Origin: Oscarella lobularis
Taxonomy: Eukaryota
Length of the DNA stretch: 64,000 bases
NCBI RefSeq assembly: GCF_947507565.1
Contig: NC_089177.1
Location: 490,648 to 554,647, forward strand
Direction: 5' to 3'
The translations under genes were made by a program, and so were the position numbers. A model generated the notes under the pieces. It saw only the letters and a list, made by a program, of their open reading frames with translations. It searched no databases and was not told the DNA's origin. This document shows positions 5,430-63,578 of the stretch, one piece after another (the stretch's first letter is position 1; every line of letters begins with the position of its first letter).

Positions 5430-7768
5430 CTACAAAGAGAGGCGATAGGGTTGATATATGTACTGTATCTTCGTCAGACCTCTGTCTGCAAACGCGTTCT
5501 TCGTTTCGTCGGTCCACGTCGCCGCGTACGGCGTGTATTGAACGAAGAGCGACGCTACGTGTTTTCCCGGCGGAGCCAGCGTCGAATCGAGCACGGACGG
5601 AATCGTCATTTCGACGAGCGGCACCGTCGACGCGCGACCGCACTCGGCGTCGAGATAGGCGCCGTGGAGACTTGCCATCGTCTCGCAGCCCAGATGGATC
5701 GTGCAGGCGAGATGAGGCCCCGGTCGAGGAAGCGTCGCGAACGACGGCAGACGATCGAGAGCGACTAGGAGGGCAAAAAAAAGATGGGATTTCACCAACA
5801 AAAAGTATCATCAAAGGTACCGTTAATCTTCGTGACAGGTGAGCGATAATCAATGCCACTGATCTCCTTTCGAAAGCCTTCAGGCAACGCTTCCTAGACC
5901 AGTTACATTCCCTCCCCCGCCGAATTCCTGTCCTTTTTGTCTCGATTCACCTTTGCTACGAGTCTTCCGAACGTCACCTCCGGCGTCGCGTTAGACAAAA
6001 CAACGTTGGCCCTTATTTCCGTTCCATCTTCGAGCAACACCCCGCGCGCCGCACCGGTGCGATCATCCGTCAAAATCGACGTGACAGGCTTCAACGTCAT
6101 GTGCAGCAAAGGCGATGAATTAGACAAAAAAGAGCACCGCAATTCGCTGACTGACTGACCGCATTTGTTTTTATGGTTGCGCCGAGCGTCTCCGCCGCTT
6201 TGGCCAACGCCGCCGACAGGCCACCCATGCCACCCTCTACGAAGCCCCATGCGTTTCTAATACCGTCCACTTCGCCCGAGACGTGATGGAGCAGAACGTA
6301 TCTGAGAATTGAGACAATTCGTATTTCGGAAATTGAAAAACGCGTTCAGTCTTCATTTACCCCGTGCCCGCCGAGTATGGACTCAGCGACGCGCCTATGA
6401 CGGCGTCCGTTGCTAGCGTGCATTTTAGCGGCTCCGATTCAAACCACGAGTCTAAGAACTTTTTTTTTGCACGGTGACCCCCAATCTCTCCCAAGCGCTA
6501 CAGAACCCATAAACCTTTGCAGCTGGAGACGTCATCAATTTGTACAATTCGACCGAATCTTTTCCAAGGTTCCGAACTAAAAAAAGAAGCTAGTTCCACT
6601 TCCGGTTTTCACATCCGGTGCTCGTACTAACTCGCTCTAAATAGATTCGACGCTGAGGCGAGCGTTTCGAGCCGTTCAACCCAGCGCCCCGACGCCAATC
6701 GCGAGAAATCGGGAGGCGGCAGATCGACGAGAGGATCGAGAGAATCGACTGCGGGAGAAAAGAAAAAGGCGCGTCAGCTGTTCGTGGAATGCTCGCGTGG
6801 CCGGGAAGTGAAGAACGCGCGTGGTTAGCATTGTCAACAAATAAGTGGGGCGAGAACACCCGCGAAAATGAAAGAGACGCGCAGTAAAGTAAACGAACGA
6901 TAACGACAGCCCATCCCATACGAGGAAAGACTTTAGATGCGATCCGTTCAAGACCAACAAAGCGAAGGACAATTGACATATCCAATTAGCGTGCATTTCT
7001 CTCACCAAATCGCCTAAGGAGTTCCTCGTATCGATCATAAGCCTTCGAAAAGGGAACGACAAGAATGCGCGGCATTTGAATCGGTTAGGTTAGTTGCGTT
7101 TAGAGAGAGAGACGACGAACTTGGGCGTCGTTCGGCGAGAATTTCGCGATCTCGCGCGCGTTCGGCTCCGCGTCCAAGCCGAGTAGCAGATACTTCGTCG
7201 AGTCGGCGAGCGGCGTGAACGACGACGGATTACGAAGAAAGATCTTCAATCCGCATTCCTCCAATAAATAAATAAATAAATAAATAAATAGTATACCCCA
7301 TATCGCCGGTTCTGGTTACTTTGAGTCGAAGGTCGTTCACGATCTTAGGACGAAATAGACTGAGAAGGTACGATGCTCGGGAAAATTTAAAGCCTTTTTT
7401 TCAGGGTTATACGGTTCTGACGTGACTTTTATTTTTCTCTCTACCGGGTACGATTTCTTCAGTGACGGCCGCTCCTCCAACAATGTGCCGTTTTTCGAGT
7501 ACAGCGACGTTGATTCCCGCCTTTTGGAGGTATCCCGCCTTGAGAGGAAGAACCCGTAAGAGAAGGTGATGCTTCGCGGTTACGGCAACTTACAGCCACC
7601 AGACCGTTGTGACCTAAAGCACAGAAATGTACTAAAGCGAGCACTCTTCTATCCTATCTGCTGACCAGCTCCAACTACAACTGCGTCGTATTGACTCTTC
7701 AGTGGCGTTTCGTTGTAAGAAGCGCGACTGGAAAAGGCTCTGCATCGCTGAAGAAATCTCGACGACAT
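5430..7768 (-). CDS. PYROXD2: Pyridine nucleotide-disulfide oxidoreductase domain protein 2-like (PYROXD2), multi-exon.
   Basis: On the minus strand: [11 protein letters not shown] | GHNGLVAV | [31 protein letters not shown], then [43 protein letters not shown] and LFVQYTPY...W.DE.K. These are separated by short GT-AG introns. The in-frame ATG is at 7768-7766 and the stop at 5430-5432. Confidence 0.7.
7263..7291. repeat. (AAAT)n microsatellite inside a PYROXD2 intron
   Basis: aaataaataaataaataaataaataaata. Confidence 0.9.
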
Positions 7769-25682: not shown

Positions 25683-27956
25683 ATGGAACTGAGACACATG
25701 CCCTCGCATCCGTCGGGCGGCCCCCGAACGATCATAGACCGTCCAACCTACAACGAAGACCAATTCCACAGCGGATTTCGACCAGCGCCGACACCGACAC
25801 CCAAAACTCTGATTCAACGCCTCAAATGCGCTCGTCCGAGTCGCGCCAGTTTGACTCGCTTTCTCCTAGCCCACTTCCCCATCGTCACAACCCTAATGAA
25901 TTACAAAATCAGCTGGAAAGACAAAATAATCGGCGATCTCGCCGGCGGCCTAACAACAGGCATCATGACAATACCTCAGGGTCTCGCTTACGCATCTCTA
26001 GCTAACGTCAATTCAGTCTACGGACTCTATACGGGAATATTTCCAGTTATCATCTACGTTCTCCTAGGCACATCGCAACACTTGTCTATGGGTGTCTTCG
26101 CCGTTGTGACGATCATGATCGGCGATGCTGTCCTAGCACAACTCCATGGAGCCAAATCTATTATTGCAAATGAGACTGCAGCTAATACATGTAATGGAAC
26201 CATCCTTACAGTTACTAATCTCACCAATAATGGAGCTATCCTCAATGGGACGATATCTGATGAAATTCCACTTCAGAAGGAGGATATTGCTATTGCTCTC
26301 ACTTTGGTGGTGGGCGTCGTTCAAATACTTTTCTACGTATTTCGACTTGGTTTTGTAACGCGATTCATGTCCGATGCAATGGTGAGCGGTTTCACGACGG
26401 GCGCCGCCTTTCACGTTGCCGCGTCGCAAATCCGTCACGTGTTCGGCTTGGAACTCAGCTATCGGAGCCCCTTCGTCGTACCCAAAACAATCTACGGCGT
26501 TTTCAAGAATATTGCCGATACGAACGCCGCCGCCTTTATTATTGCCGTCATCTCGATCGTCTTTCTTGTTATTGTGAAATACGTCAATCAGCGTTATCAG
26601 AAGAAACTTCGATTTCCCATACCCGGCGAACTCATCATCGTGATAATCGGAACTGGCGTCTCATACGGCGGAAAATTTGAAGAGAATTTCGACGTGAAAG
26701 TCGTCGCCGATTTGAGATCCGGCGTGCCGACTCCGCGCGCGCCGCGTTTTGACGTCATTGTGGACTTGCTTTCCACCTCGTATCCCTACGTGATTGCCGT
26801 CGTTTCGTTCGCCGTCAATATGTCCATAGCGAAATTGTTTGCAAAGAAGTTTCGTTATCAGATGAACAGCAACCAGGAACTACTCGCCTATGGAACGTCG
26901 AACATATTCGGCTCCTTTTTCAATTGTCTCGTTGCGAGCGGTTCGCTCTCGCGCTCGGCCGTCTACGCGTCGTGCGGCGGTCGAACGATAGTCGGAAGCT
27001 CGTTTTCGGCGCTTCTCATTCTCATCGTCGTTCTCGCTATCGCGCAGCTGTTCGCCGCCCTACCGAAGGCCGTGCTCGCCGCCGTCATTTTCGTCGGCCT
27101 TCGCGGTCTCTTCGTCCAATTTCGCGACGTAAAGCGTCTCTATCGACTCAGTCTCAGCGACATGTTCGTCTGGATTGTTACGTGGCTTGCGACTGCCGTC
27201 GTTTCCGTCGACATCGGTCTCGCCGTCGGGATCGGTTTCTCCCTACTCGTCATCATCTATCGAACGGCGTGGCCTCACCACACGCTTCTCGGTCGAATGT
27301 CCGATACGGATTTGTATCGCGAAGTGAGTCGCTATTACATGTGCGAAGAGGTCGACGGCATCAAGATATTTCGCTACGAGGCGTCGCTCTGTTTCGCCAA
27401 CGCCGAGTCGTTCAAAGCGGCCCTACTCAAGTCGCTGGGATCCATCAATTTGGATGACCCCGATTCTGCATTGGGGGAGAGCGTACAGACGACGCGTTCG
27501 AACGCCGTCAACGACGACGACGACGATTCTCCGCCCGAGTATAGACGCAATTTATCGGCAAGGGAATTAGCTCCTCAAAGGAAGTCTCCTATTCATACAG
27601 TTGTCGTCGATTGCACCGTTGTTACGTATTTGGACTCGCTTGGGGTTGGGCTGCTTATAGAGCTGACGAAGGATCTTGAGGAGGCCGGCTTGCAGATGCT
27701 CTTAGCCGGTTGCCGTTGGCGTGTAAGGCAGAGTCTCAAGCAAGGGCTCTATCTCGACAAAGTCGGGTCGGATCATCTTTTTGTCACGATTCATGATGCT
27801 GTAGTATTTGCTCAGACGGGGCTTAGACTGATGCGTAAGAGCGGCAGTGGTGAGGTGAGTTGTCAACCGGCTGACGAGGCTGGAGAAGGGTCTGGTGACA
27901 AGAGTTCCTCTATTTCTAGTACTCATAGCAATATTCTTTCCGAAACTTCTGTCTAG
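25683..27956 (+). CDS. SLC26/SulP-family anion transporter with a C-terminal STAS domain, single exon.
   Basis: 757-aa ORF with many TM helices: GDLAGGLTTGIMTIPQGLAYASLANV, GLYTGIFPVIIYVLLGTSQHLSMG. The STAS-like C-terminus reads HTVVVDCTVVTYLDSLGVGLLIELTKDLEEAGLQMLLAGC. Confidence 0.8.
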   Translation: MELRHMPSHPSGGPRTIIDRPTYNEDQFHSGFRPAPTPTPKTLIQRLKCARPSRASLTRFLLAHFPIVTTLMNYKISWKDKIIGDLAGGLTTGIMTIPQGLAYASLANVNSVYGLYTGIFPVIIYVLLGTSQHLSMGVFAVVTIMIGDAVLAQLHGAKSIIANETAANTCNGTILTVTNLTNNGAILNGTISDEIPLQKEDIAIALTLVVGVVQILFYVFRLGFVTRFMSDAMVSGFTTGAAFHVAASQIRHVFGLELSYRSPFVVPKTIYGVFKNIADTNAAAFIIAVISIVFLVIVKYVNQRYQKKLRFPIPGELIIVIIGTGVSYGGKFEENFDVKVVADLRSGVPTPRAPRFDVIVDLLSTSYPYVIAVVSFAVNMSIAKLFAKKFRYQMNSNQELLAYGTSNIFGSFFNCLVASGSLSRSAVYASCGGRTIVGSSFSALLILIVVLAIAQLFAALPKAVLAAVIFVGLRGLFVQFRDVKRLYRLSLSDMFVWIVTWLATAVVSVDIGLAVGIGFSLLVIIYRTAWPHHTLLGRMSDTDLYREVSRYYMCEEVDGIKIFRYEASLCFANAESFKAALLKSLGSINLDDPDSALGESVQTTRSNAVNDDDDDSPPEYRRNLSARELAPQRKSPIHTVVVDCTVVTYLDSLGVGLLIELTKDLEEAGLQMLLAGCRWRVRQSLKQGLYLDKVGSDHLFVTIHDAVVFAQTGLRLMRKSGSGEVSCQPADEAGEGSGDKSSSISSTHSNILSETSV

Positions 27957-30434: not shown

Positions 30435-30648
30435 TTTTTTTTTCGATGTAGTGTATTATTCTTTGTCGAGCAAGTTGTGTACATGCTGACCCTTCCCCAA
30501 GCCCTTTTTGTTAGGCAGCCCCTTATCTTTTTTTCCTATGTCATGAATTAGCGTAGAAGGACGAAAAAGACCTGAAAACGAAATCGTGTCAATCTGCTTA
30601 CGGCATTTTGCGATATCAATTTGTCACGTGCTACTGCAGGGGCGGAAC

Positions 30649-33213
30649 ATGGCATCGGTGATCGGTCTAAAACCGCTCGAGTACGTTCACATATTGGACG
30701 TTAACACGAGCGTCTCGTATGTGGAAACTGGCCCTCAAACAATATCTCTGCAAGACAACGAACGACTGACGGCGGGCCCCCATCCGTTCGTCGTCGTGCC
30801 CCCGGGTCGTTTCTGCATCGTTGAAGATCCCATCGATGCTACGACGTACGAAAAAGGAAAGCAGCCGCGCGTGCGCTTCGGCTCGCTCGACGTGCGCTTC
30901 CACGGCGAGCCTTTCTTTCTCTATCCGGGAGAACGACTTCAAGGAGCACCCAATTTAGCCAATTACAAGCCGGCACTCAAACCGCTTCCAGTCATAAAAC
31001 CGAACCACGGCCTCCGCCTCCGCGCTCGACACGATCACGTCGACGAAAACGGAACGAAACACGTTGCAGGCGAAGAATGGCACCTGGAGGGTCCCCTCAC
31101 CTACAAACCGACTCCGGACGCGGAAATCGTCGACACGATTTCTCCCGCCATCGTCGGCCCAAATCAAGCGCTTCGCTTTCGCGCGCGCGAGCGTTTCGTC
31201 GATCGCACGGGCGCCGAACGCGTCACAGGCGAAGAGTGGCTCGTTCGCGAAGCGGGCGCCTACGTGCCGCACGTCAGCGAAGAAGTCGTCGGCGTCGAGT
31301 CGGCGCACACGCTCACGCGCGATCGGGCGCTGCACGTGCGCGCGCGCGTTACGATCGACGGCGACTCGGCTCTCGGAAGCGCGCGCAAAACCGGCGAGGA
31401 GTGGCCTGTCACGTGCGAAAACGTATCCACCTTTATACCGGACGTGACGGAGGAAGTCGTCAAAGTCGTCAACAAAACGATTCTGACGAATATTCAATAT
31501 TGCGTTGTCGTCAATCCGGTTATCGACGGGAAAAATCGTCTCAGTCAACGACAGCTGCGTCGAGGTCCCGCCGAGTTTTTCCTATCGCCCGGGGAACACC
31601 TGGAACGCGGCATTCAGTCGGCGTTCATACTCGCCGTCGACGAGGCGCTCGTTCTCCGCGCAACGGAGGCGTTCGTCGACGACGAAACGCATCGCGCGCC
31701 CGGCGATCGATGGATGATCGAAGGTCCGACGTCGTACGTGCCGCCGACTCAAGTCGTCGTCGAGCGTCAATCGAAAGCGATACCGCTGGGCGAGAACGAA
31801 GGCGTTTACGTGCAAGACACGCAGACGGGTGCAGTGATCGCCGTCATGGGACCCCAGTCCTATCTACTCAAAGAACACGAGCAGCTCTTTGAGAAAAAAC
31901 TACCGGACGACGTCGAGGAGATGCTGCGACGCGGCGGCGCCATCGGCGACGACGACATTCGCAAGGTCGCTTATTTCGAATCGTCGATCGATCCGAGTCT
32001 CGTTCGATCCGGTGCGCGCGACGCGACGCGCGTCGTTTCCTATCGTTGCCCGGGCAACGCAGCGGTGCAGGTATACGATTATCAGCGTCGCACGGCGCGC
32101 GTCGTTTTTGGCCCAGATATGGTCATATTGGGTCCCCACGAGGATTTCAATGTGTTGAGCTTGAGCGCTGGGAAGCCGAAGCGTGAGAATGCGCTTCGCT
32201 GTCTCGCGCTCATGCTCGGACCCGATTTCATCACCGACATCATCGTCGTGGAGACGGCGGATCACGCGCGTCTGCGCATCAAACTTGCGTTCAATAATTA
32301 TTTTGACGTGAATTGCGACGACGTGGCGGACGCGGCGAAGATTTTCGCCGTGCCGGATTTCATTGGATTCGCCTGTCGCGACGTCGGGAGTCGCATTCGA
32401 AGTGCCGTCGCGCAGACGCCGTTCGACGAGTTCCATCGGCACTCGTCGCGGATTATACGAGCGTCCGTTTTCGGGCTCGACGCTCGGGGCAAAGTGAAGA
32501 ACGAGTTGCGATTCGCCGCGAATAATCTCGTCGTGACGAACATCGACGTGCAGAGCATCGAGCCCGTCGATCGTCAGATGAGCGATAGTTTGAGCAAGAG
32601 CGTTCAAATGGCTATCGAGATTGCCACGCAGGCGATCGAGCGTCAGGCGTCGCAGGAGGCGCGGAGACGCGAGCAGGAAGCGCGCGGCGTCCTGGAGCGG
32701 GAGAAATTGAAGGGGGAAATGGACGCGGAACGCGCCCGCATGGAGCTCTATGAATTACAGGCGATCAGTGCGGCCGTGGAGTCGACCGGTCAAGCGCAGG
32801 CCGAAGCCCAAGCGCAGGCTGAACGGCTTCTCATCGAAGGCGAGAGTGCGATCGAGTCGACGAAGCTTTTCGCCGAGGCGCAGGATGTTGAACATTCGGC
32901 GCTTCTCGACGCGAAGAAGAGATCGAATGAGGGCGAGTTGGGTTACGTGCGCGCGACGAATGAGCTCGAGTTGGCGAAGGCGAAAGCGTTGGCTGGGATC
33001 GAGGTCGGGAAGTTTCGGTCAATGGTGAGCGCGTTGGGATCGGAGACGGTTGCGGCGATCGCCCGCGCTGGGCCCGAGTCGGACATGCGTTTGTTGAAGT
33101 CGCTGGGGCTGCAGTCAACGTTGCTGACGGATGGGAAGAGTCCTGTCAATCTGTTCAACGTCGCTGGGGGATTGGTTGGAGCCACGATGGCAACGTCAGG
33201 CGATGCCCAGTGA
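30649..33213 (+). CDS. MVP: Major vault protein, intronless.
   Basis: Single 875-aa ORF. The N-terminus MASVIGLKPLEYVHILDVNTSVSYVETGPQTISLQDNERL matches the MVP start [37 protein letters not shown]. MVP repeats, a shoulder and a coiled-coil cap-helix region follow. Confidence 0.9.
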   Translation: MASVIGLKPLEYVHILDVNTSVSYVETGPQTISLQDNERLTAGPHPFVVVPPGRFCIVEDPIDATTYEKGKQPRVRFGSLDVRFHGEPFFLYPGERLQGAPNLANYKPALKPLPVIKPNHGLRLRARHDHVDENGTKHVAGEEWHLEGPLTYKPTPDAEIVDTISPAIVGPNQALRFRARERFVDRTGAERVTGEEWLVREAGAYVPHVSEEVVGVESAHTLTRDRALHVRARVTIDGDSALGSARKTGEEWPVTCENVSTFIPDVTEEVVKVVNKTILTNIQYCVVVNPVIDGKNRLSQRQLRRGPAEFFLSPGEHLERGIQSAFILAVDEALVLRATEAFVDDETHRAPGDRWMIEGPTSYVPPTQVVVERQSKAIPLGENEGVYVQDTQTGAVIAVMGPQSYLLKEHEQLFEKKLPDDVEEMLRRGGAIGDDDIRKVAYFESSIDPSLVRSGARDATRVVSYRCPGNAAVQVYDYQRRTARVVFGPDMVILGPHEDFNVLSLSAGKPKRENALRCLALMLGPDFITDIIVVETADHARLRIKLAFNNYFDVNCDDVADAAKIFAVPDFIGFACRDVGSRIRSAVAQTPFDEFHRHSSRIIRASVFGLDARGKVKNELRFAANNLVVTNIDVQSIEPVDRQMSDSLSKSVQMAIEIATQAIERQASQEARRREQEARGVLEREKLKGEMDAERARMELYELQAISAAVESTGQAQAEAQAQAERLLIEGESAIESTKLFAEAQDVEHSALLDAKKRSNEGELGYVRATNELELAKAKALAGIEVGKFRSMVSALGSETVAAIARAGPESDMRLLKSLGLQSTLLTDGKSPVNLFNVAGGLVGATMATSGDAQ

Positions 33214-33428: not shown

Positions 33429-35216
33429 TTGGGCGCCAATAGAGTTATGAGCGACTTCTATGAGGACTTTATTCGGCCCCAGCTAACGGAGCTGATGAAG
33501 AAAATTGACGTTACCGACCATCAAATGTTGAGCTACATGTACCAGGAAAAAATGATAACGGAGGACGACCAACACAATCTGGCAGCCACGTCGCAGATGT
33601 CACCCTCGGAGAAACAAAGATTGTTTTTTCAGACCATTCTAGCACGCGGGCTGGGCTCGGAAGCCAAATTCCGCACGTTTTGTACCGCTTTGACGAAACG
33701 ACGGGGAGCCCACATGGACGATTTGGCTCAGTTGCTTTTGGCCCACGCTAAGCTAGAAGGTAAGCTCATGAATGTGTTGTTCTAACAAGTTAGTGAGGCA
33801 TATCTGCTAGATAGAACACAGCACTCCATGACGTCACGAGGTACCTTACTCTTTTTTATCGCGCTTCGGTACGTGAGGAAACATGACCTGTTGTACAGTA
33901 GGTTTGAAGCGGTCCAGAGCACATGGCGAGTTGCAAACAGCAAAAAAATCAAAGGCTTCTTCACCTGCACCTGAAGGTACCGCAGGCCCGTCATTAGCTG
34001 CGGCGACCATGTTGAATTTAAATCTTTGAGTTTTTTTGTTGCAGATGAACCAGACGGGCCAAGCCGCCGTCGACGCATGAAGCGAAAAAATCCCAGTCGA
34101 AAAGCGATGCGAGAAGGTCGCCGTTCGCAAGAAGCGAAGCGAAAAATTCATCTCTTGGTAGTTTGTGCTCTACCAAAAGAGTTGGAAGCCGCAAAGGATG
34201 CTATAGGAGCACAAGAATGGGAAGAAATCAGGAGTGGAACAATGGGCTATCGCGTCTTTGTTGCTGATGTAACGTGGAAGAATCATTCAAAGAAAAACGA
34301 AATTCGTGTGACTGTAGGAGTTGTAGCTCAATCAAAATCAGGGGGTCAAGAGACTTCCAACTTGCTTGGATCTCTTAACAGTCAATTTGATGTCAATTTT
34401 CTTGCCATGACCGGCTGCTGCGCTGGTGTTGAAGACGTTGACTGCTACAGCGTTATAGTAGCGGATAAGACCACCGCTTTGGAAAGAGAAAAGCATCTCG
34501 AAAGCGCAGTTCAACATCAAGTGGGCCCTGGTGGTGATCTAGAGCACGAATTAATTCAAGCTGTGAATTCACTTCTGATGGATTTGAAGACGTCAGACTG
34601 GCTTGATCCAGAGGTTTCTAGCACTGCTCCACCAAGTCCTCGGCTAGTCCGCGAGTCATTGCTCAAAGCAATTGAGGACAGTGGGAAATCCAGCAAGGAC
34701 GCCATAGAAAAAGCCGTACAGGAGATAAAAAATGTCAACAAAGATATCTACCCAAACATCCTAAATAAGCTCGTCAAAGAAGGCTTGATAGAAAAGCGAG
34801 AAGAAAAAGAGCCTCAGATGCGAATCCTATACTGCCTGTCTGCCGAAGGTGCCAAACACGTTAGTGAGCTTCCCTTCGGTCTTCTATCGCCGGACAAAGA
34901 TCCTTCTGTGCGTGTAACGACACTGTTCACGTGTCAGGACGTTCTCGTCAATCTTAAGAGTGTTCTTCCGAAATTGAAGGAAGCCACAGGCCAACGAAAG
35001 ATAACCGGTGTTGACATGGAAGCTCATCATTTTATGGTGCAGGCAAAGCATTTTTTCCCCAAGTCTTCGTGCATTGTAATGAAAGGGGTTTCTGACCACG
35101 GATCGCCAGAATCAAAAGAAAAATACAATCAAGAGTATGCGTCCAAGTGTGCGACATTGTTTTTGAAGTATTTCTTGGAAAAGAACTTTGAGTATCTGGA
35201 GAAGAAAAAGAACTAA
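33429..35216 (+). CDS. CARD (death-fold) - PNP_UDP nucleoside-phosphorylase/nucleosidase fusion protein. Exons 33429-33759 and 34045-35216, joined by a 285-bp phase-1 GT-AG intron.
   Basis: Exon 1 is a CARD-like domain that is about 65% identical to the CARD of the CRADD-like gene at 37338: FYEDFIRPQLTELMKKIDVTDHQMLSYMYQEKMITEDDQHNL...FRTFCTALTKRRGAHMDDLAQLLL. Exon 2 is a PNP_UDP_1 domain: IHLLVVCALPKELEAAKD...VFVADV...VGVVAQSKSGG...FLAMTGCCAGVEDVDCYSVIVAD...ITGVDMEAHHFMVQAK...CIVMKGVSDHGS. MTAN-type catalytic E/E/D positions appear conserved. The splice frame was verified: G + at gives GAT. Confidence 0.7.
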
Positions 35217-35316: not shown

Positions 35317-37233
35317 ATGGACGCTATTTTGAGAAAGAACTTCGTGTTTCTGCGTCGCAATCTTCGCCTGAAGAAGGAATTGTTAGCTTATATGTTTCAG
35401 GAACATTTAATCGATGACGAGGAATATGATCAGTTGGAAAACGAAGCCAAATCAGAGCCGGAAAGAGTTAGGTACTTCATTATGACGGCAATGAGAGGAA
35501 AAACGAAGTCCGATTTACGAAGACTCGTTCAAATGCTCAGAAAAACAAACCAAGAGCCAGTCGCTCACCGTCTCGAACGTGCAAACGTCAGAAAAAAGAA
35601 ATGGTCGAAACGACTGAGGAAAAGGGCGATGCCTTACCTTTCTAGTCTGGTAGTATTTGTGTTTGTACACAAGTTGCTCTGGCGTACGTACCAGGCGAAC
35701 AAACCGCACGTTGAAAAGGTCCTCAAAATAATCTTCGGTAAAAGGCCAGAAATTAAAGAAGGAATTATGCCGGAGAACTCCAATAGCGACACTTCTGACC
35801 CATCAAAAAACCACACACTTGAGATTAAGGAAAGAGTAAAACTGCGCTTTTATTTTCCAAATCTACCAAAAGACACCTACAAAATAGTGGAAGAAGGTCT
35901 CCGATCCAGTCTTTCACTTTCTCTGGATCTTCCCAGAGACCTCTTAGAGGTGTTTGCAAAACCGTTTTCGTCAGTTCTTGTCATTGTCATTCTACCTGGC
36001 GCTGCTGCGCTGAAATTGTTTTCCATTTTGTCTAAGCCTCTACCTAATTTTCTGTATGAAAAATACGGGCCAACTCGTCTTAAGATTGAGAGTTTGCGCC
36101 CAATGAATATTTTATTTGAGAAGGCTTTTGGTATGTAACTTGTCAGAAGATAGAGTATAACAGTACATTTTCTATTTCCTGTAGAGCGGAACTGGGGCTC
36201 ACGAGCTTGGATCCAAGGTCAAGTGGCCCGTCTAAACGAATGTAGGAAAAATTTTCATCAACTCAAGACTCAGTTATCTTACTGGCTACCCCCTCCGTGG
36301 TGGCAAAAAGCAACAAAAAACCGTTTCAGGAAATTTCAGAGTCAACTGGATCACGTTCAAGATGAAATGCAGGCCTTGAAGGACAGTTTCAGCAAGCTGA
36401 GTCTCCTGCCTAAACCCCAGGCTGTTGAAGTTTCTACGCAAACCGAATTACAAGAAGGTACAGGGAACGCCTAGTAGGTGCAATGATTGATTAATTAGTT
36501 ATTAATCCTAGACGATGGCAGATGGTCAGAGACAATAATGTTTCGGGAGTCTTTTTCTCCACAAAGCGGTTTTGCCCTAATAATTAACACCGTTTCACCT
36601 GAAAGTGAATTACATTCTCAAGCACAATCAGAGACAAATAGTCTTCTGTCTACGTTCAAAAAGTTGGGTCTTGTTTGCAAAACAGAAACAAGCGTTAAAT
36701 CAGGTGACGTGAGCGATACACTCGAAAATTTTGGCAATTGCGACTACGCAAAGTACGACTGGCTAGTGTGCTGTCTCCTGGTAGCCATGGAGAAGATGAA
36801 AACAGGCCGTGACTCAGCGGAAGACTGCTCGCCTCTGTGTCTTCACGACATTATGGCGCCGTTTAGAGAATCTAGATGCCCTACCCTTAGTGGAAAGCCT
36901 CGCGTTTTTATTATCATTTCGCCAGCTGGAAGGTCAATTGATGAAACTGGCGATATGCACGTGGAATTCAAAGACGATGAATGGACTTTGCGAGAGGGTT
37001 ATGTTCCCAAAGACTGCCTGCTGCTAGTGTTTCATTACCCCGCTCCAGAGGACAAGCGCTCTTCTTTCGCTACATCATTGCTTGATAATCTACAACAACA
37101 AGGTGGGCAGTTGAACGATGTGGAAGAACTGCTCTTTATGGCATATGATCAACTAATTGATAGTCTGCTTTGGTCTTCGGTGTGGAGTAAGAATACGTTG
37201 AGTAAGGCAATAGAGGTGGCTCTTGAGACTTGA
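35317..37233 (+). CDS. CARD - coiled-coil - caspase-like (peptidase C14 fold) protein that lacks the catalytic dyad, i.e. a pseudo-caspase. Exons 35317-36130, 36185-36457 and 36512-37233, all joined by about 54-bp phase-1 introns.
   Basis: N-terminal death-fold: ILRKNFVFLRRNLRLKKELLAYMFQEHLIDDEEYDQLENEAKSEPERVRYFIMTAMRGKTKSDLRRLVQMLRK. Middle exon is a coiled coil. Last exon aligns to caspase p20/p10: GFALIINTVSPESE...LLSTFKKLGLVC...YDWLVCCLLVAMEK (AME where caspases have SHG) ...RCPTLSGKPRVFIIISPAGRS (SPAG where caspases have QACRG). Donor, acceptor and phase were checked at each junction. Confidence 0.65.
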
Positions 37234-37337
37234 CAAGTTCTACATTTTTTTGCGCGATGATGTTTTATAGACTTTTTCAGACTTTTATTTTGCCCATTGG
37301 AGTTGAAGGGGAGCACACGTGATCTGCTGCGAGGACT

Positions 37338-37946
37338 ATGAGCCGCTACTACGAAAAGTGCATTCGGCCTCGACTAACGGAGCTGATGAAGAGAATCGAC
37401 GTTACTGATCATCAAATGCTGAGCTTCATGAACCAGGAAAAGATGCTGTCGGACAACGACCAACACAATCTGGAATCCACTTCCCTGATGCGACCCTCTG
37501 AGAAAGATAATCTATTCTTTCACACCATTCTAAGAACCGGACTGGCCACGGAAACTCAGTTCCGCGCGTTTTGCGCCGCTTTGACGAAACGACGAGGAGC
37601 CGAAAAGGACGATTTGGCTCAATCTCTTTTGAAAGGCGCCGGCCTCGAAAGTGAAAGCGCGTCGCGTACTTCGTTTGAAAGGAAGCCAACTTCTAAAGAG
37701 CTGAACAACTTATCGAAGCTAATAGCGAGCGACGACATGTGGAAGCCGCTCGGCAGATGTCTCGATGTTCCGGACTCGAAGTTGACCGAAATCGCAGCCA
37801 CGCATCATTCTCCTCGAGAACGAGCGTACCAAATGCTACAGTCGTGGGTCGAAAAGAACTCGAACGCCGCAACGGTGAAACTACTGTGCGAAGCACTCTG
37901 TGAAGAGGGTCGCGACGATACGGCAAAGGAAATTTTTGGCTGGTGA
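37338..37946 (+). CDS. CRADD: CRADD/RAIDD-like adaptor (CARD + death domain), single exon.
   Basis: 202 aa. The N-terminal CARD is a paralogue of the CARD at 33429. The C-terminal death domain reads ELNNLSKLIASDDMWKPLGRCLDVPDSKLTEIAATHHSPRERAYQMLQSWVEKNSNAATVKLLCEALCEEGRDDTAKEIFG. Size and architecture match human CRADD (199 aa). Confidence 0.65.
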   Translation: MSRYYEKCIRPRLTELMKRIDVTDHQMLSFMNQEKMLSDNDQHNLESTSLMRPSEKDNLFFHTILRTGLATETQFRAFCAALTKRRGAEKDDLAQSLLKGAGLESESASRTSFERKPTSKELNNLSKLIASDDMWKPLGRCLDVPDSKLTEIAATHHSPRERAYQMLQSWVEKNSNAATVKLLCEALCEEGRDDTAKEIFGW

Positions 37947-38158: not shown

Positions 38159-40776
38159 TCAAGACGCCGTTTTTGTCCAGCTAGGAACTCCGTATGCCGG
38201 ATCGTCGACCGCACTCTGCTTCAGCCTATTTCCGGCCATCATATCGTCCGCCGTCACTTCGCTATACGCTTCGTCGTCCTCTTCACCGTCATTCGTAACA
38301 TTGATGTATCCAGGTTGATCCCTAGCCACATCCTCGTACGCTCCTAGACCTTCTTCCTCAGGAAAATCGACGTTGTGATACGGTATTCTTCCTCTTGCTC
38401 CTGCCGCCGCAGGAGCAATCGGTCTGTCCTCGGGATAGTTAACGTTGAAGTAAGGCGGATTATCGGCGGGCGGCATCTCGTACGGCGATTCCTGAGTGGC
38501 AAAACGTCTTGGCTTAGGAATCGTCGCGTCATCAATCGTCATTTCGTCCAAAATACTATCAATGACGTCAATTTCCTCCTTGCTAATCGTTAAGGTTTTG
38601 TTCGACGGCGTAATTTGTCGGGGCATCGGAACTGAAGCGGACGCCGCAATCGCCGCCGCAACCGCCGCTCGATCGGTACTCAGTTTTCGTTTACTTGTCG
38701 GAAACTCGTCCCTCGCTAATGTACTGTAAGGACTCATAGTGCGATTGGCATGTTCGGCCAGACCGGCCATTAGGTCGTCGAGCTCAGCGTCGTCATAAAG
38801 CGGGGCGTCATCGTCAGGAGCAACAGCGGCGACGGCAGCGGCGGCGACTTTCTCGTTCGGAAGAACCAATCGATCGTATCCGACAGATCCTCTCTTCGGT
38901 TTGGGAGGAACGACTTTTTCTTCTCTCGGTGGCAGCGGATTTTTCTTCGGCGGAGGAGGTTGATGCCGCGGCGGTGATTCCGCAATTGCAAATTTTCCGT
39001 CGCCAGCCGAAAAGAGAGTATCGTACGGCGTGACCGGCTTCACCGCACCGGCGTCAATCTGATCCTCCGTTTCGTAAAAGTGCTCTTCAGGATTTTCCGG
39101 AATCGACGTCGTCTCGTTGACCGTCACAGTCTGAACAAATCGCTGTTTGAGGGAACCGTGCGACGGCACCGCAGGCGGCTCCGTCACTGTACTTGAACGC
39201 GGTTTAGCTACAGGGGGAACGGGCTGCGGTGCTCTTGCACTCCCTGGTCGATTCGGTAGGGGATTTGCTGGCGTCGGCTGCGCTTGTACCATGTCGGCTT
39301 GGCGAAGGCTCGTGTGCTGTTGGGAGCCGATTAGTTTCACGTTGTTGTGCACGTGGTGAAAGATTTCGTTTCCCAGTCGGGTGCCGAAGTAGAAGACGCC
39401 CGGGCCCGTTTCGCATTTTCTGCCCGCTTCGAATGTGAATTTCGTGTAGTCGCGACCGTAGCGTCGCAGATACTTGAGCGGCCAAACGCAGATGATTTCG
39501 TTGGAGAGAACACTGGCAAGAGTTATGTTCAGTCCCGATATGACGAGATGGTATTCGCCGACCAGTTGCAGTGCCGTCGAAGCTTCAGTCGGGATAATCG
39601 ACACACGATAACGTTTTTCTGTAACAAAAAAGGCGTCATTTTGAGGTAAAAAATCTATCCCTGGCTATTTATAGGAAGTAAGTGTACATGTCATTTCTTT
39701 ATATTATTCTGTGCTAGAAACCCGTTCACAAGGGATCTCGTCTTCTTACCAAGCTCCATACTGCTATAAAGCGTGTTCTCCTGGACGCCCAGCGGCTGAT
39801 TGGGAACAAGAAACGGGTTTCCTTCGGGAGGCGGCATCGCCATTTGCGGTTGCGGCTGCACAAAAGGATTACCGGCACCTCCTTCCATTGCAAACGGCAT
39901 TGGTGCTTGCGACGGCGGCTGCAACGCCAACGGATAACCGGCGTCTCTTCCGCCCTGGATTGCAAACGGGGGCGGCGACAAAGGTGGCTTTCCTCCGAAA
40001 CCGTCGCTTGGAGAACCGAACGAACCGAACGAAGAATTCTGAGGTTCTGACATGTATGCGGGTGGCGGCGATCCCGGCGGAAGCGAACCGGCGTCGTCGC
40101 CGAAGGCGACTCGCGATATACCGTCGATCCAAACGTCGAGATCGCGTTGAGTCGGCAGAGCGAATCGATAGTGCAGCACGGGCGTGAGAAGGTCGAGAAC
40201 GAAGCTTTTCGATTTATGCGTCGTCTGATTGACGGCCGTCACTTCGCGCAGGGGAATGATTCGTCGGCTGTTCTGTCGACGAGCGTGGTTCATGTCGGGA
40301 TAGTACTCGAGTCGCGCGCTGCCTAACGAGCCGGCACTGCGCAATACGAACCACCTCTTGTTCCACGTCTATAAAGCGAAAACGTTATTTGTTTGCGGTG
40401 AGAGCCTTTTGATTTCGGGGAAGGACGCGCGGTGGGGGAGGAGTCGCGAGGATAAGATCTAGCTGACCCAAACGCTGCAAAAATGGCAGCATTTGGCTCT
40501 GAGTTTGTTGACTTTATACCCATACCAGAGACTCGGACTTAGTCAACGGACTGGGGGGACTGCGTTGTAATGGGAGGGGCTTCGTGCTTGCAAAACGATC
40601 TATATTTAGTTTTCATTCAGATCTCTTTTTAAGTTTTGCTACGATAGCAGTATTCTTCGGTTTGCTGCTGGAGTGCGCTTTCGCAGGGGATTAGATTTTC
40701 GTTGCCGTTTTACCTTGAAGGCTCCTGGTTGTTGAGGGCATTTTTCCATGTAGCCCTCTAATGCCACGTCGGTCAT
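38159..40776 (-). CDS. DOK/FRS-like docking protein (PH + IRS-type PTB). Exons (minus strand): 40714-40776, 39750-40368, 38159-39618.
   Basis: Exon 1 reads MTDVALEGYMEKCPQQPGAFK. Exon 2 reads TWNKRWFVLRSAGSLGSARLEYYPD...FALPTQRDLDVWIDGI and completes the PH domain. Exon 3 is the PTB: VGEYHLVISGLNITLASVLSNEIICVWPLKYLRRYGRDYTKFTFEAGRKCETGPGVFYFGTRLGNEIFHHV. A Pro/Tyr-rich tail follows. Introns are phase 0 then phase 1, GT-AG, verified. Confidence 0.65.
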
Positions 40777-45158: not shown

Positions 45159-48100
45159 ATGAACGACTCGATCGACGACCCGTCCCTACTCGCCGTCGCC
45201 GACGGCGCGTGCGCGCGCTCGTCATCGTCGTCGTCTTCGGTCCGATCGGACACATACGTTCAAGATGGACCAAATATCGAAGAATCGGTGCCGTCGCCGC
45301 CGCCTCCGCCGCCGCCGCCGCCCGAGTCGCGATCCGTCGCCGCCGCCGCTTCGATCGACGTCGTCGCCCAATACGATCGTCTTCTCGACGGTATACGAAA
45401 TCGAGACTTGACGGCCGTCACGTCGCTGCTCAACGAAACTCCCGATCTATTGAAATCGCCGGCGGAGTTTCATTCGTCCAAAGACGACGTCAGCGCGCGG
45501 GGGCGCGGTCAAAACATGACAGCGGCACGTGCCTTGTCGGCGGCCATATGCGCGGATTCGTTTCACATGGTTAGCTTCCTTTTGGAAAGGGGAGCTCATC
45601 TGGTTCCGGATGCGAAACGTCCGCCCACGCCTATTGGGAGCGAAGAGAACGACGACGACGACGAAATGATCGATCCGTTGATATTGGCAACGCGTCGCGG
45701 CGACGGCGATCTCGTGCGACTTCTTCTGCGCGGCGGCGCGACGCCGATTGCGCGCGATCGTCAAGGACGCACGGCGATGCATTGGGCCGCCGAGCGACGC
45801 GCGCGCGACTGCGTCGTCGCGCTGCTCGAAGCCGGCGCGCCGATTCGCGTCGACGACGACGACGGCGTTCAAGCCGTCGATCTGATGCCCGACTTGGAAG
45901 CGCGACAATCTCGTCTCGTGCGCGATTCGCTCGAAATTTTCGAACAGAAGCAGACGTCGAAGGATCCGACGGCGTTGATACGGAAACGACGGCGCGGCAC
46001 GATTGGAATCGATTCGTTGATTTTTGCCGCCGTCGATCCGGCGTCGTCGCTTGGCGGCGGCGGCGGAAGCGCCGTTTCGGACGAGGTGAAAGCGTTGGAA
46101 ATTTTGACGGGACTTTCGCGAAACGACGAGTGTCTGCCGACGATCTTGGCCGGCCTGCCCGACTGCATACCGGGCATCATACTTCACTCGCAACTCAGCT
46201 GGGGATCGGATATGAGCGACGCCGTCACGAAATTCATGAGAAGTATACGCAAGGTACTATCGAACAGCTGGCCTCATTAACACATTTGACGTTGATTGGG
46301 TTTTTTTTTTGAAGGCGACTTTGAAGAGTCTCAATAATAATCAAGGTCTCTTGATGCAGTGCGCTTTGGAGTTCGTTCAAGGCGGTCAGGAAATGCAGGC
46401 GGAAGCGCTTTGCATTATCGACGATTTGATTGAAGCGAATCGAGCCGATTTTACGCCGTCATCGTCGCCGTCGTCGTCGTCGTCGTGCAACTTTCGTCTT
46501 CACGTCTCGCATCGTCCCGTCGAGGCCGTTCTCTCGTCCGCCTCGTCGTCGTCTACAGCGACGTCGTCGTCGTCGACGGCAACCGAACGTACGATGACGG
46601 CGACAGCGGAATGTCCGTCGTCGCCAATTGACGTTCTCTGCATGACCGATCCGTCGCCGCTTCTTCACGTCCTCTCCAGCGCGCTCGCGATTCACTTCCG
46701 ATCCGGTATCGGGGGACAGTGCGCCAAAGGAGTCAATTCCATGCAGCTAATCGTCGCAAAGGCTCTCGCCGTCGCCAGCCTATCGCCGACCATGCAAAGC
46801 CGACTCGCAAAAGATCATCACGCAAAGTCTTTATTGGAAGTGTTAGAGAAAGCGACGAATCCGGTAAGAACCAGTCTTAAAGAGACCACCTGTCTATTGT
46901 GATCGCTCTCGCTATTATTTTTATAGCGGTCGCAATAGGCAGCAATTTGACACTTCCACACTCTATTTCTCTCTCCCTCCCTCACGCAGGTTGTCATTGA
47001 CTTGACGCTCTGCATATTGGCCTCCCTCGTCGAAAATCCTCAGCATCACGAAGCGCTCGCGCGTCTCCAAGCGTCCGATCGCCTGCGCGCCTTTCTCCAA
47101 TCCGCCTCTCTTCGTGTTGGGGGCAGTGCGGATAGCGGCGCGCGCGCTCTCCTACCCCAACTCCGTCATCGCGTCGCCTATCTCCTCGTCGCGCTCGGCG
47201 CCGTCGCCACCGAAGCCGATCAACTCGACGGCGTCTATCTGTTCGCGTCGATGGTGAAAAAATCCCAAAGCGGAGTCAGCTGTTTTTCGATTCCCGAAGA
47301 CGACACCAACGTATTCAATCTGCGTCAACGATTCGGTTCCCAAGGAAACGGCGACGACGACGACGACGACGAAACGTCGAAACGATTCGTCGCCTCTCTA
47401 CCCAACGTTCTCGCCCCCGTTTCCATAATACGTCATTTGACGTCAAATTCCGAAATAGACACGGACGCCTTTTTGGACTTTTTTCTTGGCGTCGCCGTGA
47501 CGGCACTCCATCCGGTCATATTTCTTCGTCTTCTACGTCACAGTCTCTTCTCGCATCCCGCCTTCGTTCTGCTCCTTCGACCGTCGAGACGACGTTCGAG
47601 TCAGAATTCGTCGCTTCGAAGCGGACGCCGTAGCGTCGTGTCGCTGTCGTTGCCGTCCGGCGGCGGTGGCGACGACGCGTGGGAAGGCGTCGCGATGCCG
47701 GAGTTTCATCGGCGCGTTTTGCGAGTGTTGACCGAGTGGATGAAACGCTACGGGGCCGACGTGATGGACAGTTCGCTCGCCGCCGAAGAGATTAAGCATT
47801 TTATGTTGGATTTGCAGGCAGTCGGGTTTGGCTACGAAGTGTGGGTTGAGCACGTCAATTCTCTGCTCGTCGCTCAGGTGAGGGAATATTTGGCCACCAA
47901 AGTGAATAAATATATGATCATTTCTTTGTTTTTATTAGGATGTTCGATTGATTAAGAAAAAGTCGAGTTTGTGTTTGATGACGGAAGACGATCTACGAAG
48001 TCACTACGAGAAAGTAAGTGTCGTCGTATCTAAAAAGAAATAAAAAAAACACTATCTTCTTTTAGTTAAAAATTCAAATTCTTTCCGACGAATTACCGTG

Positions 48101-62261: not shown

Positions 62262-63578
62262 TTATTCCCACCAAAAACTTACCGAAAAGCTGACGCTCAA
62301 TGATTTTACAAAGTGCCAGCACATCGGCGGTATGTACAACATCTCGCCCTCCTTTAGCACACCATCCCAATAGACAGCATCGCAGAACAAAGGATGCTCT
62401 GCTACGTCAACGCACTCCACGTCGACTTGACTCGTATTCTTCAACATATCCGACCGATGAGCATATAAGAAGTCCGTCTGCGATTTCTCGTACAGTCGCA
62501 CATACTTGGACCCCACGACCTGAGCCAACAGATTCCGCTTGGGATCATAGTGAAGTGGCGATACCGTTCCCTGGGGACCAAACCAAGCGTTGACGTCGAC
62601 GTCATCGTCGCTACTACTGATACAGCAATAATCCGGTATACATATATCTCTTTTGAGTTCGGGAATTTGATCGAATAGACGATGCTGAGCCAAGTAGCCC
62701 TTTTCCACGGACTCTCCACCGGCTACGTATTTATCAATAAACTCATTCATCGTTATTAGTGATTGTCCCCACGTTTCGTCGGTATATCGAGCGCCCAATT
62801 CGACGGGAACAGTACGCGAACCGGCAACGCGTTTTATATAGTCCAGCGTCCATCGGCGATCGTTGGGGGCGGGCCTAAGTGCCGGCCAGTGAGTCATAGC
62901 ACCCTCGACGATGATTGGCTGCTCTCGATTCATATATCGCGTTTGAAACGAGTGCAACGAGGGCACGCGAATTCGTTCGAGAGTCGATCCTTTTCCTTGG
63001 TATCCGATCGACGCCGGCTCGGCGTTTCGATCTCCTTCGTCGAGCCTATAGCGTTTCGATTCGCTCGTCTCGCTTGCGCGTATGAATGCGTTGAGTCTCG
63101 ATGCTACTTTGGTGAGCAGATCGTCCTGAATGGGAGCTCCCATCAATAAGCCGCGATCGCACGCTTCTAACGCCTTCCGAATCGATTCCAATTCGACGAC
63201 GATGGCGTTTACGCACGTGGTCATCGTTCGTAGTAGGCTCGCGTGAGAATAGGCGATTCGCCATCCCATTTCGACGTCTTTCCAATAGCCCGTGTTCAGC
63301 TTTTCCCAGATGAAATCGAGCGCCGCGTCAACGCGAGTCGACGCCTCGTCGAGATTTTGCTTCGTCTTCACTAAGCGAGCGGCTTCGTCTAGGAGATGAA
63401 GGAGGGGTTTTGAGCCCGGGAGACGATCGATTTTCGCTCTGTCGTCGTCTTGGAGCTGTAATTGAACTTTTAGGTCAGCGAAAATGTCTTCGAGATGGTA
63501 GGTAAGTGAGCTGGATCCCGATGGAGTCTCCCTTGCCATCCCTAAAAGACTTTTAAACTCCAACGATGTCCCGGACAA
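62262..63578 (-). CDS. KDM8: JmjC-domain lysine demethylase/hydroxylase KDM8 (JMJD5), single exon.
   Basis: 438 aa. FIWEKLNTGYWKDVEMGWRIAY...RTVPVELGARYTDETWGQSLITMNEFIDKY...GYLAQHRLFDQIPELKRDICIPDYC...AWFGPQGTVSPLHYDPKRNLLAQVVGSKYVRLY...NTSQVDVE...FSVSFWWE is near-collinear with human KDM8. Confidence 0.9.
   Translation of the reverse strand: MSGTSLEFKSLLGMARETPSGSSSLTYHLEDIFADLKVQLQLQDDDRAKIDRLPGSKPLLHLLDEAARLVKTKQNLDEASTRVDAALDFIWEKLNTGYWKDVEMGWRIAYSHASLLRTMTTCVNAIVVELESIRKALEACDRGLLMGAPIQDDLLTKVASRLNAFIRASETSESKRYRLDEGDRNAEPASIGYQGKGSTLERIRVPSLHSFQTRYMNREQPIIVEGAMTHWPALRPAPNDRRWTLDYIKRVAGSRTVPVELGARYTDETWGQSLITMNEFIDKYVAGGESVEKGYLAQHRLFDQIPELKRDICIPDYCCISSSDDDVDVNAWFGPQGTVSPLHYDPKRNLLAQVVGSKYVRLYEKSQTDFLYAHRSDMLKNTSQVDVECVDVAEHPLFCDAVYWDGVLKEGEMLYIPPMCWHFVKSLSVSFSVSFWWE

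Follow-up and report, generated by a model that had tools for sequence, protein, structure and literature searches.

The 64,000-nucleotide stretch of the Oscarella lobularis genome analysed here (assembly GCF_947507565.1, contig NC_089177.1, positions 490,648 to 554,647 of the forward strand; hereafter the window) contains, at positions 33429 to 35216, a gene in which a death-fold domain, most likely a CARD, stands N-terminal to a nucleosidase of the PNP superfamily. This architecture, which had been put forward in an original prediction made from the DNA letters, was borne out by the RefSeq gene model, by profile comparisons and by the predicted fold. The reading that we favour on balance is that the locus is one four-exon gene encoding a divergent CARD, a basic linker and a PNP domain which resembles those of Cap17 and DtcC and bears an insertion, and that its product would be an ATP-depleting effector recruited through its CARD. 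Its most likely function would be that of a death-fold-recruited, ATP-depleting effector of immunity or cell death, a role that matches the evidence because profile scores favour the ATP nucleosidases and because the gene lies in a cluster of death-fold genes, beside one coding for an adaptor with a CARD and a Death domain.

The two domains are joined in a four-exon gene model

The two open reading frames (ORFs) of the original prediction, 33429..33785 and 34026..35216, are both present on the plus strand, the real start codon being the ATG at 33447. The coordinates of all features are collected in Table 1. Exon 1 ends with a donor site after 33759 (AAG/GTAAGC) and the last exon is preceded by an acceptor before 34045 (TTGCAG/AT), both in phase 1, and a direct join of 33447-33759 to 34045-35216 across a 285-nucleotide (nt) GT-AG gap leaves an open frame of 494 amino acids (aa). 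The sites, the phase and the frame of the intron proposed originally were thus right, but a single 285-nt intron is not what RefSeq annotates: two phase-1 micro-exons (33811-33840 and 33902-33976) lie within it, and the product has 529 or 530 aa rather than 494. Once the four exons are joined, the window encodes exactly the O. lobularis protein XP_065828229.1 (529 aa), named in its RefSeq record ‘uncharacterized protein isoform X2’. It is identical to the 494-aa join save for 35 additional residues at the junction. Isoform X1 (530 aa) has one Val more, as it is spliced at a tandem acceptor (NAGNAG) that lies 3 nt upstream, at 33899. The annotated introns measure 51, 61 (58 in X1) and 68 nt and are all of the GT-AG type. 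Were 33759 spliced directly to 34045, both micro-exons would be skipped with the frame intact, in an isoform that has no annotation.

The order of the genes is shared with contigs L001 and L002 of a closely related assembly (ENA ERZ18545485). As the introns are also about 98% identical to those of L001, conservation of exons versus introns is uninformative in this comparison, and the only useful observations are a 6-nt in-frame insertion that L001 has in micro-exon 3 and the conservation in this contig of both splice sites bordering micro-exon 2 (CTAG/ and /GTACCT).

The CARD-PNP fusion is the RefSeq-annotated model, and our confidence in it derives from this model and from the fit of the splice sites to the ends of the ORFs, which lie within 6-8 codons of them. 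One could instead suppose two separate genes, one for a CARD-only protein (33447..33785, read through to a stop in the intron) and one for a stand-alone PNP started from an internal Met (e.g. MREGRR...), with the fusion being an artefact of gene prediction. In-frame Met residues do occur upstream of the PNP domain, and two of them, M115 and M126, could in principle yield such a stand-alone product; homologues from Corticium have the PNP at the N terminus and no CARD; and ORF-based calls in ENA split the locus into products of 99-112 and 375-379 aa. We discount these calls, as they are prokaryote-style ORFs, blind to introns. Both RefSeq isoforms join the exons, consecutive phase-1 GT-AG junctions (four by our count) hold the frame up to ORF ends only 6-8 codons away, and in another organism (P0026, see below) a CARD and a PNP occur in one uninterrupted ORF. 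We thus deem the two-gene explanation quite improbable. Bacterial contamination was also considered, and was ruled out by the spliceosomal introns and by the position of the gene among MVP, SLC26 and IRS-PTB genes with conserved synteny.

The N-terminal domain is probably a CARD

The original prediction had called the domain encoded by exon 1 a CARD. That it adopts a death fold is probable, and profile-profile comparison favours a CARD over the other death-fold types, while the Pfam score stays under threshold. Specifically, CARD (PF00619) is the sole Pfam family reported for this domain, with a match that spans positions 3-74 of the 85 in the profile and scores 17.1 bits (E 0.0056), the cutoff being 23.9; the Death domain (PF00531) gave no Pfam match in it. 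For hhalign we used as references 12 human CARDs, 11 of which were verified against PDB chains. The N-terminal domain aligned to CARDs over 70 columns with P 5.5e-4, well ahead of DD (0.037), PYD (0.11) and DED (0.2), and the aligned pattern tracks the CARD helices. When the CARD-like domain of the neighbouring gene B was added, the P value for CARD became 3.5e-5; overall, the hhalign probability ranged from 30 to 72%. The AlphaFold model of aa 1-104 has six helices (2-20, 24-33, 39-50, 53-68, 72-85 and 91-100) at a model confidence (pLDDT) of 55-68. Foldseek run on the full-length model lists matches to the PNP fold only and has no bearing on the CARD. A word-indexed homologue search with the CARD alignment returned 0 matches.

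An alternative is that the domain is not a CARD but a death fold of some other subtype, or else an unrelated bundle of helices that does not mediate homotypic recruitment. Besides the Pfam score below the gathering threshold, what speaks for it is that the copy of the domain in gene C has no Pfam CARD match at all, that a search of PDB sequences with the CARD profile found no CARD structure, only a spurious match to augmin, that phmmer against 1.84 billion representatives found no CARD relatives apart from the paralogue, and that the lower hhalign probability (30%) and the pLDDT of the model are modest. The sub-threshold score and the negative searches with the profile and with phmmer, together with the points named below for the enzyme, count against the interpretation we prefer. 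On the other hand, the hhalign ranking of the death-fold types, the extent of the only Pfam match and the fitting lengths of the six predicted helices argue for a CARD, and so do the fact that the paralogue immediately precedes a bona fide Death domain, like the CARD of CRADD, and the presence of further CARD-like and caspase-like domains in the same cluster. We therefore give little credence to the alternative and consider the domain, with fairly high confidence, a probable CARD.

The C-terminal domain is homologous to MTAN-type nucleosidases

The original prediction also assigned a PNP_UDP_1 domain to the second ORF. The Pfam model itself is silent on this sequence: PF01048 gave no match at E<=1 on the 494-aa protein and its gathering score was not reached, which is another point against our interpretation. 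The identity of the domain stands nevertheless, as it comes from family profiles and from comparison of the predicted fold. In phmmer, 111 proteins were found at E<=1e-3, many of them matching aa 136-485 in one stretch, and PF01048 does match 28 of the 47 aligned proteins (the query and its top phmmer hits), at best with 1.7e-21. The profile A3, built from 26 family members including the domain of the window, found matches outside Oscarella of which 22 out of 23 contain PF01048. Compared with solved structures, A3 matched MTA/SAH nucleosidases with E 3.2e-16 (PNP structures were matched too) in two stretches that bracket the insertion, the second of which corresponds to MTAN residues 135-227 and includes the motifs DMEA and KGVSD.

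Structure prediction points in the same direction. An AlphaFold2 model based on an alignment of 20 sequences reached pLDDT 75-92 in the N-terminal half of the PNP domain and 58-89 in its C-terminal half (the single-sequence model of the 494 aa was unusable, with a mean pLDDT of 39). With this model Foldseek returned 387 PDB matches at E<=1e-3, the top 50 of which are all PNP, UP or MTAN, and the predicted structure has the NP-I alpha/beta fold. By sequence profile and by predicted fold, then, the C-terminal domain is homologous to the MTAN-type nucleosidases.

The acidic residues that had been proposed as catalytic, in the LPKELE, GVDMEA and VSDHG motifs, are kept. E150 (LPKELE), E430 (DMEA) and D455 (VSDHG) align to E12, E174 and D197 of MTAN (E. 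coli numbering), respectively, and are near-invariant across the family alignments; they are also unchanged in both Oscarella variants, despite a divergence of 15%. D455 aligns with D353 of DtcC, the mutation of which (D353A) abolishes Detocs defence (Rousset et al., bioRxiv 10.1101/2023.01.24.525353). Not every motif is maintained, however: the widely conserved ‘LGD’ before the beta-strand reads ‘CYS’ here, with the Asp changed to S, C or T across the sponge clade. This possibly means an altered activity or substrate, and must be set on the opposite side of the balance.

The enzyme family is closer to immune ATP nucleosidases than to housekeeping MtnN

The family profile was compared with reference sequences of purified enzymes, taken from the supplement of Rousset et al., and with the sequence of E. 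coli MtnN. It scored 110 bits on DtcC, 86 on Amphimedon DDAN, 75 on the fungal NLRN and 48 on MtnN, in a test at the level of the family and not of the single sequence. DtcC, DDAN and NLRN are demonstrated ATP/dATP nucleosidases (Rousset et al., bioRxiv 10.1101/2023.01.24.525353). By profile comparison, then, the PNP family stands nearer to the proven ATP nucleosidases than to MtnN, a housekeeping enzyme.

A rough neighbour-joining tree, which has no support values, places the window together with Corticium, O. pearsei and several other sequences. This sponge group is sister to database hits that include DtcC and one Ktedonobacteraceae protein, and DDAN and NLRN fall outside both. Orthology to Amphimedon DDAN was accordingly rejected, on this rough tree and on the length of the insertion (~125 aa versus about 54 residues).

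The setting of the gene resembles that of immune genes, with a CARD-like N terminus, neighbours coding for a CARD plus Death protein and for CARD-like and caspase-like domains, and relatives of the conflict type. Domains carried by relatives include NB-ARC/TPR, Roc-COR-LRR, EAD8 and AAA_35, and ZU5 in the protein P0010. P0026, a single ORF of 562 aa found on 1.9-kb contigs, has both a PNP and a CARD at the Pfam threshold. On contig L003 of the assembly ENA ERZ21742408, the PNP ORF P0013 (6001-7140), which keeps the insertion, is followed after 62 nt, on the same strand, by an ORF with a clear Death domain (7203-7466, E 1.4e-11), and the two probably form one PNP-Death fusion in which the adaptor is C-terminal.

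Two further kinds of relatives were noticed. The Corticium candelabrum homologues XP_062515817 and XP_062515551 have a C-terminal extension of ~110-130 aa with a faint likeness to the Death domain (hhalign P 0.002). In the Oscarella pearsei transcriptome (EukProt), an insertion-bearing PNP paralogue (P0028) has an N-terminal C2H2 zinc finger of the dsRNA-binding type (zf-met E 3.6e-7, zf-C2H2_jaz E 9e-6), which recalls architectures with a nucleic-acid sensor and a PNP reported for arthropods and nematodes.

We also asked whether the protein may be a housekeeping enzyme of nucleoside or methionine salvage that carries an extra N-terminal domain. It does share the superfamily and the fold with MtnN and DeoD. 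Yet MtnN scores below the immune enzymes with the family profile, the domain does not closely resemble the canonical MTAP or PNP of animals, its dN exceeds that of adjacent housekeeping genes by a factor of 20-50 (see below), and both the immune-type architectures of its relatives and the surrounding death-fold gene cluster speak against such a role, which we regard as highly improbable.

A winged-helix-like insertion interrupts the PNP fold

An insertion of ~125-135 aa (aa ~256-390) breaks the PNP fold at MTAN residues ~135-140. It is missing from MTAN and from DtcC, and DDAN has about 54 residues at this place. The sponge sequences conserve it, as do bacterial-looking homologues, one of them named Ktedonobacteraceae, with the motif RP-S-x3-QR-x-WLL, in which sponges have PSPR. 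Pfam found only weak winged-helix matches in it (PadR 5.7e-4, MarR, F-93 WHD and HxlR). When the insertion profile was compared with the PDB, nearly all best matches were winged-helix proteins as well (Fur, PadR, SlyA, IdeR, eS19; E 0.016-0.5), and DtxR-type winged helices are also among the weak matches of these searches. Tentatively, the insertion may be seen as a winged-helix-like module for regulation or for binding a partner. It is poorly modelled (pLDDT 35-56), which is a further weakness of our interpretation. The net charge of the aligned 116-aa segment is -4, which argues against plain DNA binding. The idea that the insertion is a Z-alpha domain or a DNA-binding sensor found no support, since the Pfam and PDB profile searches gave no Z-alpha (no direct comparison with CG12065 or H14E04.2 was made), the net charge is below zero and the winged-helix matches are weak. 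By these searches the Oscarella protein differs from the arthropod and nematode Z-alpha-PNP proteins (Rousset et al. 2023), in which a Z-alpha module is present.

The enzyme domain evolves fast

Rates of nonsynonymous (dN) and synonymous (dS) substitution were estimated against the related assembly ENA ERZ18545485, comparing window positions 34089-35216 with L001 10001-11128 (PNP exon) and 35317-36138 with L001 11234-12067 (first ORF of gene B). The housekeeping neighbours MVP, SLC26 and IRS-PTB gave dN 0.001-0.003 and dS 0.005-0.03 (dN/dS 0.1-0.2). For the PNP exon the values were dN 0.058 and dS 0.077 (dN/dS 0.75), for the first ORF of gene B dN 0.0625 and dS 0.093 (0.67), and for gene C dN 0.019 and dS 0.054 (0.36). 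The PNP exon also has three in-frame indels relative to the related assembly, and dS is raised along with dN both in this exon and in the first ORF of gene B. The comparison shows that the enzyme domain evolves fast, and the rates of the PNP exon fit an immune-type gene under diversifying or balancing selection. It needs to be mentioned, on the unfavourable side, that a dN/dS of 0.75 could also be explained by relaxed constraint, and likewise by gene conversion.

The gene lies in a cluster of death-fold genes

Gene C, 2 kb downstream of the PNP gene, encodes a CARD-like domain (37338-37655) that is 68% identical to the exon 1 CARD (tblastn E 6e-41). Its C terminus matches the Pfam Death domain with E 1.4e-15 and, in the PDB, the death domains of RIPK1, THOC1 and TRADD. 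At the level of DNA, positions 33446-33740 and 37337-37631 are 79% identical. As this similarity runs from the ATG to just before the exon 1 donor, it suggests that the coding segment of the CARD alone was duplicated. The CARD exon looks like a local duplication that was joined to the enzyme exon, which would be a clear case of exon shuffling giving rise to a new death-fold effector. We propose gene C as the docking partner for the CARD of the PNP gene.

Gene B sits between the two. The CARD-like domain of its 5' ORF matched CARDs in hhalign with P 7e-5. In its 3' ORF, the caspase-like one, SHG of caspase-3 is replaced by VA-M and QACRG by ISPAGR, so that the catalytic His and Cys are both replaced. 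The two ORFs are probably parts of one CARD-pseudocaspase gene, reminiscent of regulators of the FLIP type.

Table 1. Features of the window, in window coordinates
Feature	Positions	Strand	Remarks
SLC26 sulfate transporter with STAS	25683-27956		
Major vault protein gene (MVP), intronless	30586-33213	+	Vault repeats and MVP shoulder; 234 nt separate its end from the start codon of CARD-PNP
CARD-PNP gene, exon 1	33447..33759	+	Start codon; CARD-like death fold over aa 1-104; ends on the first base of codon 105
CARD-PNP gene, micro-exon 2 (30 nt, phase 1-1)	33811..33840	+	Codes for RTQHSMTSR and parts of the flanking codons; required for the 529-aa RefSeq match
CARD-PNP gene, micro-exon 3 (75 nt, phase 1-1)	33902..33976	+	Basic, Ser-rich linker LKRSRAHGELQTAKKSKASSPAPE; begins at 33899 in X1
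CARD-PNP gene, start of last exon	34045..34136	+	Basic linker DEPDGPSRRRRMKRKNPSRKAMREGRRSQEAK, 41% K/R
PNP/MTAN-type domain, N-terminal half (aa 136-255)	34137..34496	+	E150 at 34179-34181; AMTGCCAG motif
Insertion in the PNP fold, winged-helix-like (aa ~256-390)	34497..34901	+	PPSPR...LL motif
PNP/MTAN-type domain, C-terminal half (aa 391-494) and stop	34902..35216	+	M429/E430 (E430 at 35019-35021), D455 (35094-35096)
Gene B, 5' ORF	35317-36138 (CARD-like part 35317..35601)	+	Pfam CARD E 0.0012, 19.2 bits, below cutoff
Gene B, 3' ORF, caspase-like	36538..37233	+	Pfam Peptidase_C14 E 4.7e-10
Gene C, single-exon, 202 aa	37338..37946	+	CARD-like and Death; CRADD/RAIDD-like architecture
IRS-type PTB protein	38159-39604	-	
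Ankyrin-repeat protein	45159-46280		
JmjC/KDM8-like protein	62262-63578	-	

The remaining genes of the window are ordinary animal genes, many of them long single ORFs, which fits the compact, intron-poor genome of Oscarella. As for the gene upstream, another vault component, TEP1, has been linked to an NADase domain of bacterial immunity (preprint 10.64898/2026.09.04.749371); the adjacency of MVP to the CARD-PNP gene may be coincidental.

A possible mechanism and the question of the substrate

By analogy with DtcC, Cap17, DDAN and NLRN, the enzyme would hydrolyse the N-glycosidic bond of ATP and dATP, freeing adenine. It would be held inactive until CARD-CARD contacts gather several copies, the likeliest partners being the neighbouring CRADD-like adaptor (gene C), the CARD-pseudocaspase (gene B), or both. 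Enzymes of the PNP/MTAN superfamily act as oligomers; clustering would therefore be expected to activate the enzyme, by assembling its oligomeric active form. The outcome would be a loss of ATP, as part of a cell-autonomous response of immunity or cell death. The insertion would probably regulate the enzyme or bind a partner, and the linker between CARD and PNP, which comes partly from the two micro-exons, is probably disordered. Its basic part at 34045..34136 resembles a nuclear localisation signal, and by this composition nuclear targeting is possible. It should be kept in mind, to the detriment of this scheme, that paralogy and proximity are the only grounds for proposing that its CARD pairs with that of gene C.

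A different possibility is that the fusion is real and the PNP-like domain does not cleave ATP, either having another substrate (MTA/SAH, AMP, an NAD-related compound or a signalling nucleotide) or serving, without catalysis, as a module for binding or scaffolding. MTA/SAH nucleosidases are indeed the closest solved folds, the LGD motif is replaced by CYS, a large insertion lies within the PNP fold, dN/dS is high at 0.75, and these alignments cannot reveal substrate specificity. However, the three catalytic acidic residues are kept in both Oscarella variants in spite of their 15% divergence, the proven ATP nucleosidases outscore MtnN with the family profile, and every immune-type PNP assayed so far has preferred ATP or dATP (Rousset et al. 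2023). We thus find this possibility fairly unlikely and retain the ATP-depleting effector as the preferred reading.

A more far-reaching idea, which we offer as speculation and hold to be unlikely, is that the three adjacent genes form a self-contained, PIDDosome-like death-fold module of an early-branching animal, with an ATP-destroying nucleosidase rather than a protease as its executioner. In this scenario, the Death domain of the adaptor may take an upstream signal, and its CARD, a recent duplicate of that of the effector, may nucleate a filament on which the active PNP oligomer is assembled. The pseudocaspase may be a FLIP-like competitor, and the winged-helix insertion, which is common to bacterial homologues, may gate the active site through a ligand or a partner. 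The raised dN and dS may reflect diversification driven by pathogens or by allorecognition.

Relation to known systems

The original prediction presented the combination of a death fold with a PNP as no part of the canonical animal apoptosis toolkit. Here it overstated the case, since the principle had already been published in two works. The effector domains reported to be joined to Death-like/TRADD-N units, both in bacteria and in Amphimedon, include PNPase (Kaur, Burroughs, Iyer, Aravind 2021, PMC8195603). Eukaryotic PNP-Death domain fusions have been shown by Rousset et al. (2023, bioRxiv 10.1101/2023.01.24.525353), who reported that Amphimedon DDAN cleaves ATP and dATP in vitro and is toxic in E. 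coli, and who put forward the view that bacteria, fungi and animals share an immune strategy in which Cap17-like PNP domains deplete ATP. We found no published description of this Oscarella gene or of its cluster, within an incomplete coverage of the literature. What appears to be new here is a CARD-type adaptor in place of a Death domain, a PNP subfamily which goes unseen by the Pfam model and bears a winged-helix-like insertion, the occurrence in Homoscleromorpha, and the tandem cluster with a CRADD-like adaptor sharing the CARD and with a CARD-pseudocaspase.

DDAN (Amphimedon queenslandica, UniProt A0A1X7TVA9) is built like the Oscarella protein, with a death-fold adaptor followed by a C-terminal Cap17-like PNP, and both have the catalytic motifs DMEG/DMEA and K-x-V-x-D. 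Its adaptor is a Death domain, whereas that of Oscarella is CARD-like (with the hhalign P for DD, 0.037, weaker than that for CARD); its PNP is compact, whereas that of Oscarella takes about 350 aa, including the ~125-aa insertion, instead of the ~270 aa of a compact domain; and in the rough tree it lies outside the Oscarella/Corticium clade. The Death-like/TRADD-N-PNPase proteins of Amphimedon and the bacterial bDLD3-PNPase (PMC8195603) follow the same principle of a death-superfamily adaptor with a PNPase effector, but the Oscarella protein comes from another sponge class, Homoscleromorpha, and from another PNP subfamily, and no TRADD-N was detected in it with Pfam.

Among characterised relatives DtcC of Detocs scores best, and has the ‘AM(S/T)G(I/C)CAG’ motif and the catalytic Asp in common with the Oscarella protein. 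In DtcC and in Cap17 of type III CBASS the effector is tethered to a module that receives a signal, as in Oscarella, although DtcC is activated by a phospho-receiver domain and Cap17 by a nucleotide-sensing domain of the SLOG type, while the N-terminal module of Oscarella is a death fold. The PNP_UDP domain of fungal NLRs (Hyaloscypha variabilis NLRN) has in common the motif K/R-G-(V/I)-(S/C)-D-Y-x-D-x-x-K...YAA, and both are eukaryotic PNPs of the immune type. In the fungal proteins, however, the PNP is fused to NACHT/NB-ARC and repeats in one polypeptide, whereas the Oscarella PNP is fused to an adaptor and would need separate proteins as sensor and adaptor. The MTA/SAH nucleosidase MtnN/Pfs (PDB 1zos, 4l0m, 1jys) is, by comparison, a stand-alone housekeeping enzyme of ~230 aa, with neither insertion nor adaptor.

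As regards the PIDDosome (CRADD/RAIDD and caspase-2), gene C shares the CARD plus Death architecture, and two CARDs so alike are what one would expect if an effector were recruited homotypically. The effector of the PIDDosome is a caspase, whereas in Oscarella it would be a nucleosidase, the adjacent caspase-like ORF being devoid of the catalytic residues; gene C is likened to CRADD by its architecture.

How the animal enzymes of this type are activated is the question to which the locus speaks, as it gives a concrete pairing, in which the docking domain of the effector is a near-copy of the CARD in an adjacent CARD plus Death adaptor. In addition, the eukaryotic branch that escapes the Pfam model, which carries a winged-helix-like insertion and includes sponge proteins (Oscarella, Corticium) and a Chloroflexota (Ktedonobacteraceae) protein, would not be collected by surveys based on PF01048, because that model misses it. 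As this model underlies published surveys, the animal repertoire of these enzymes has probably been under-counted.

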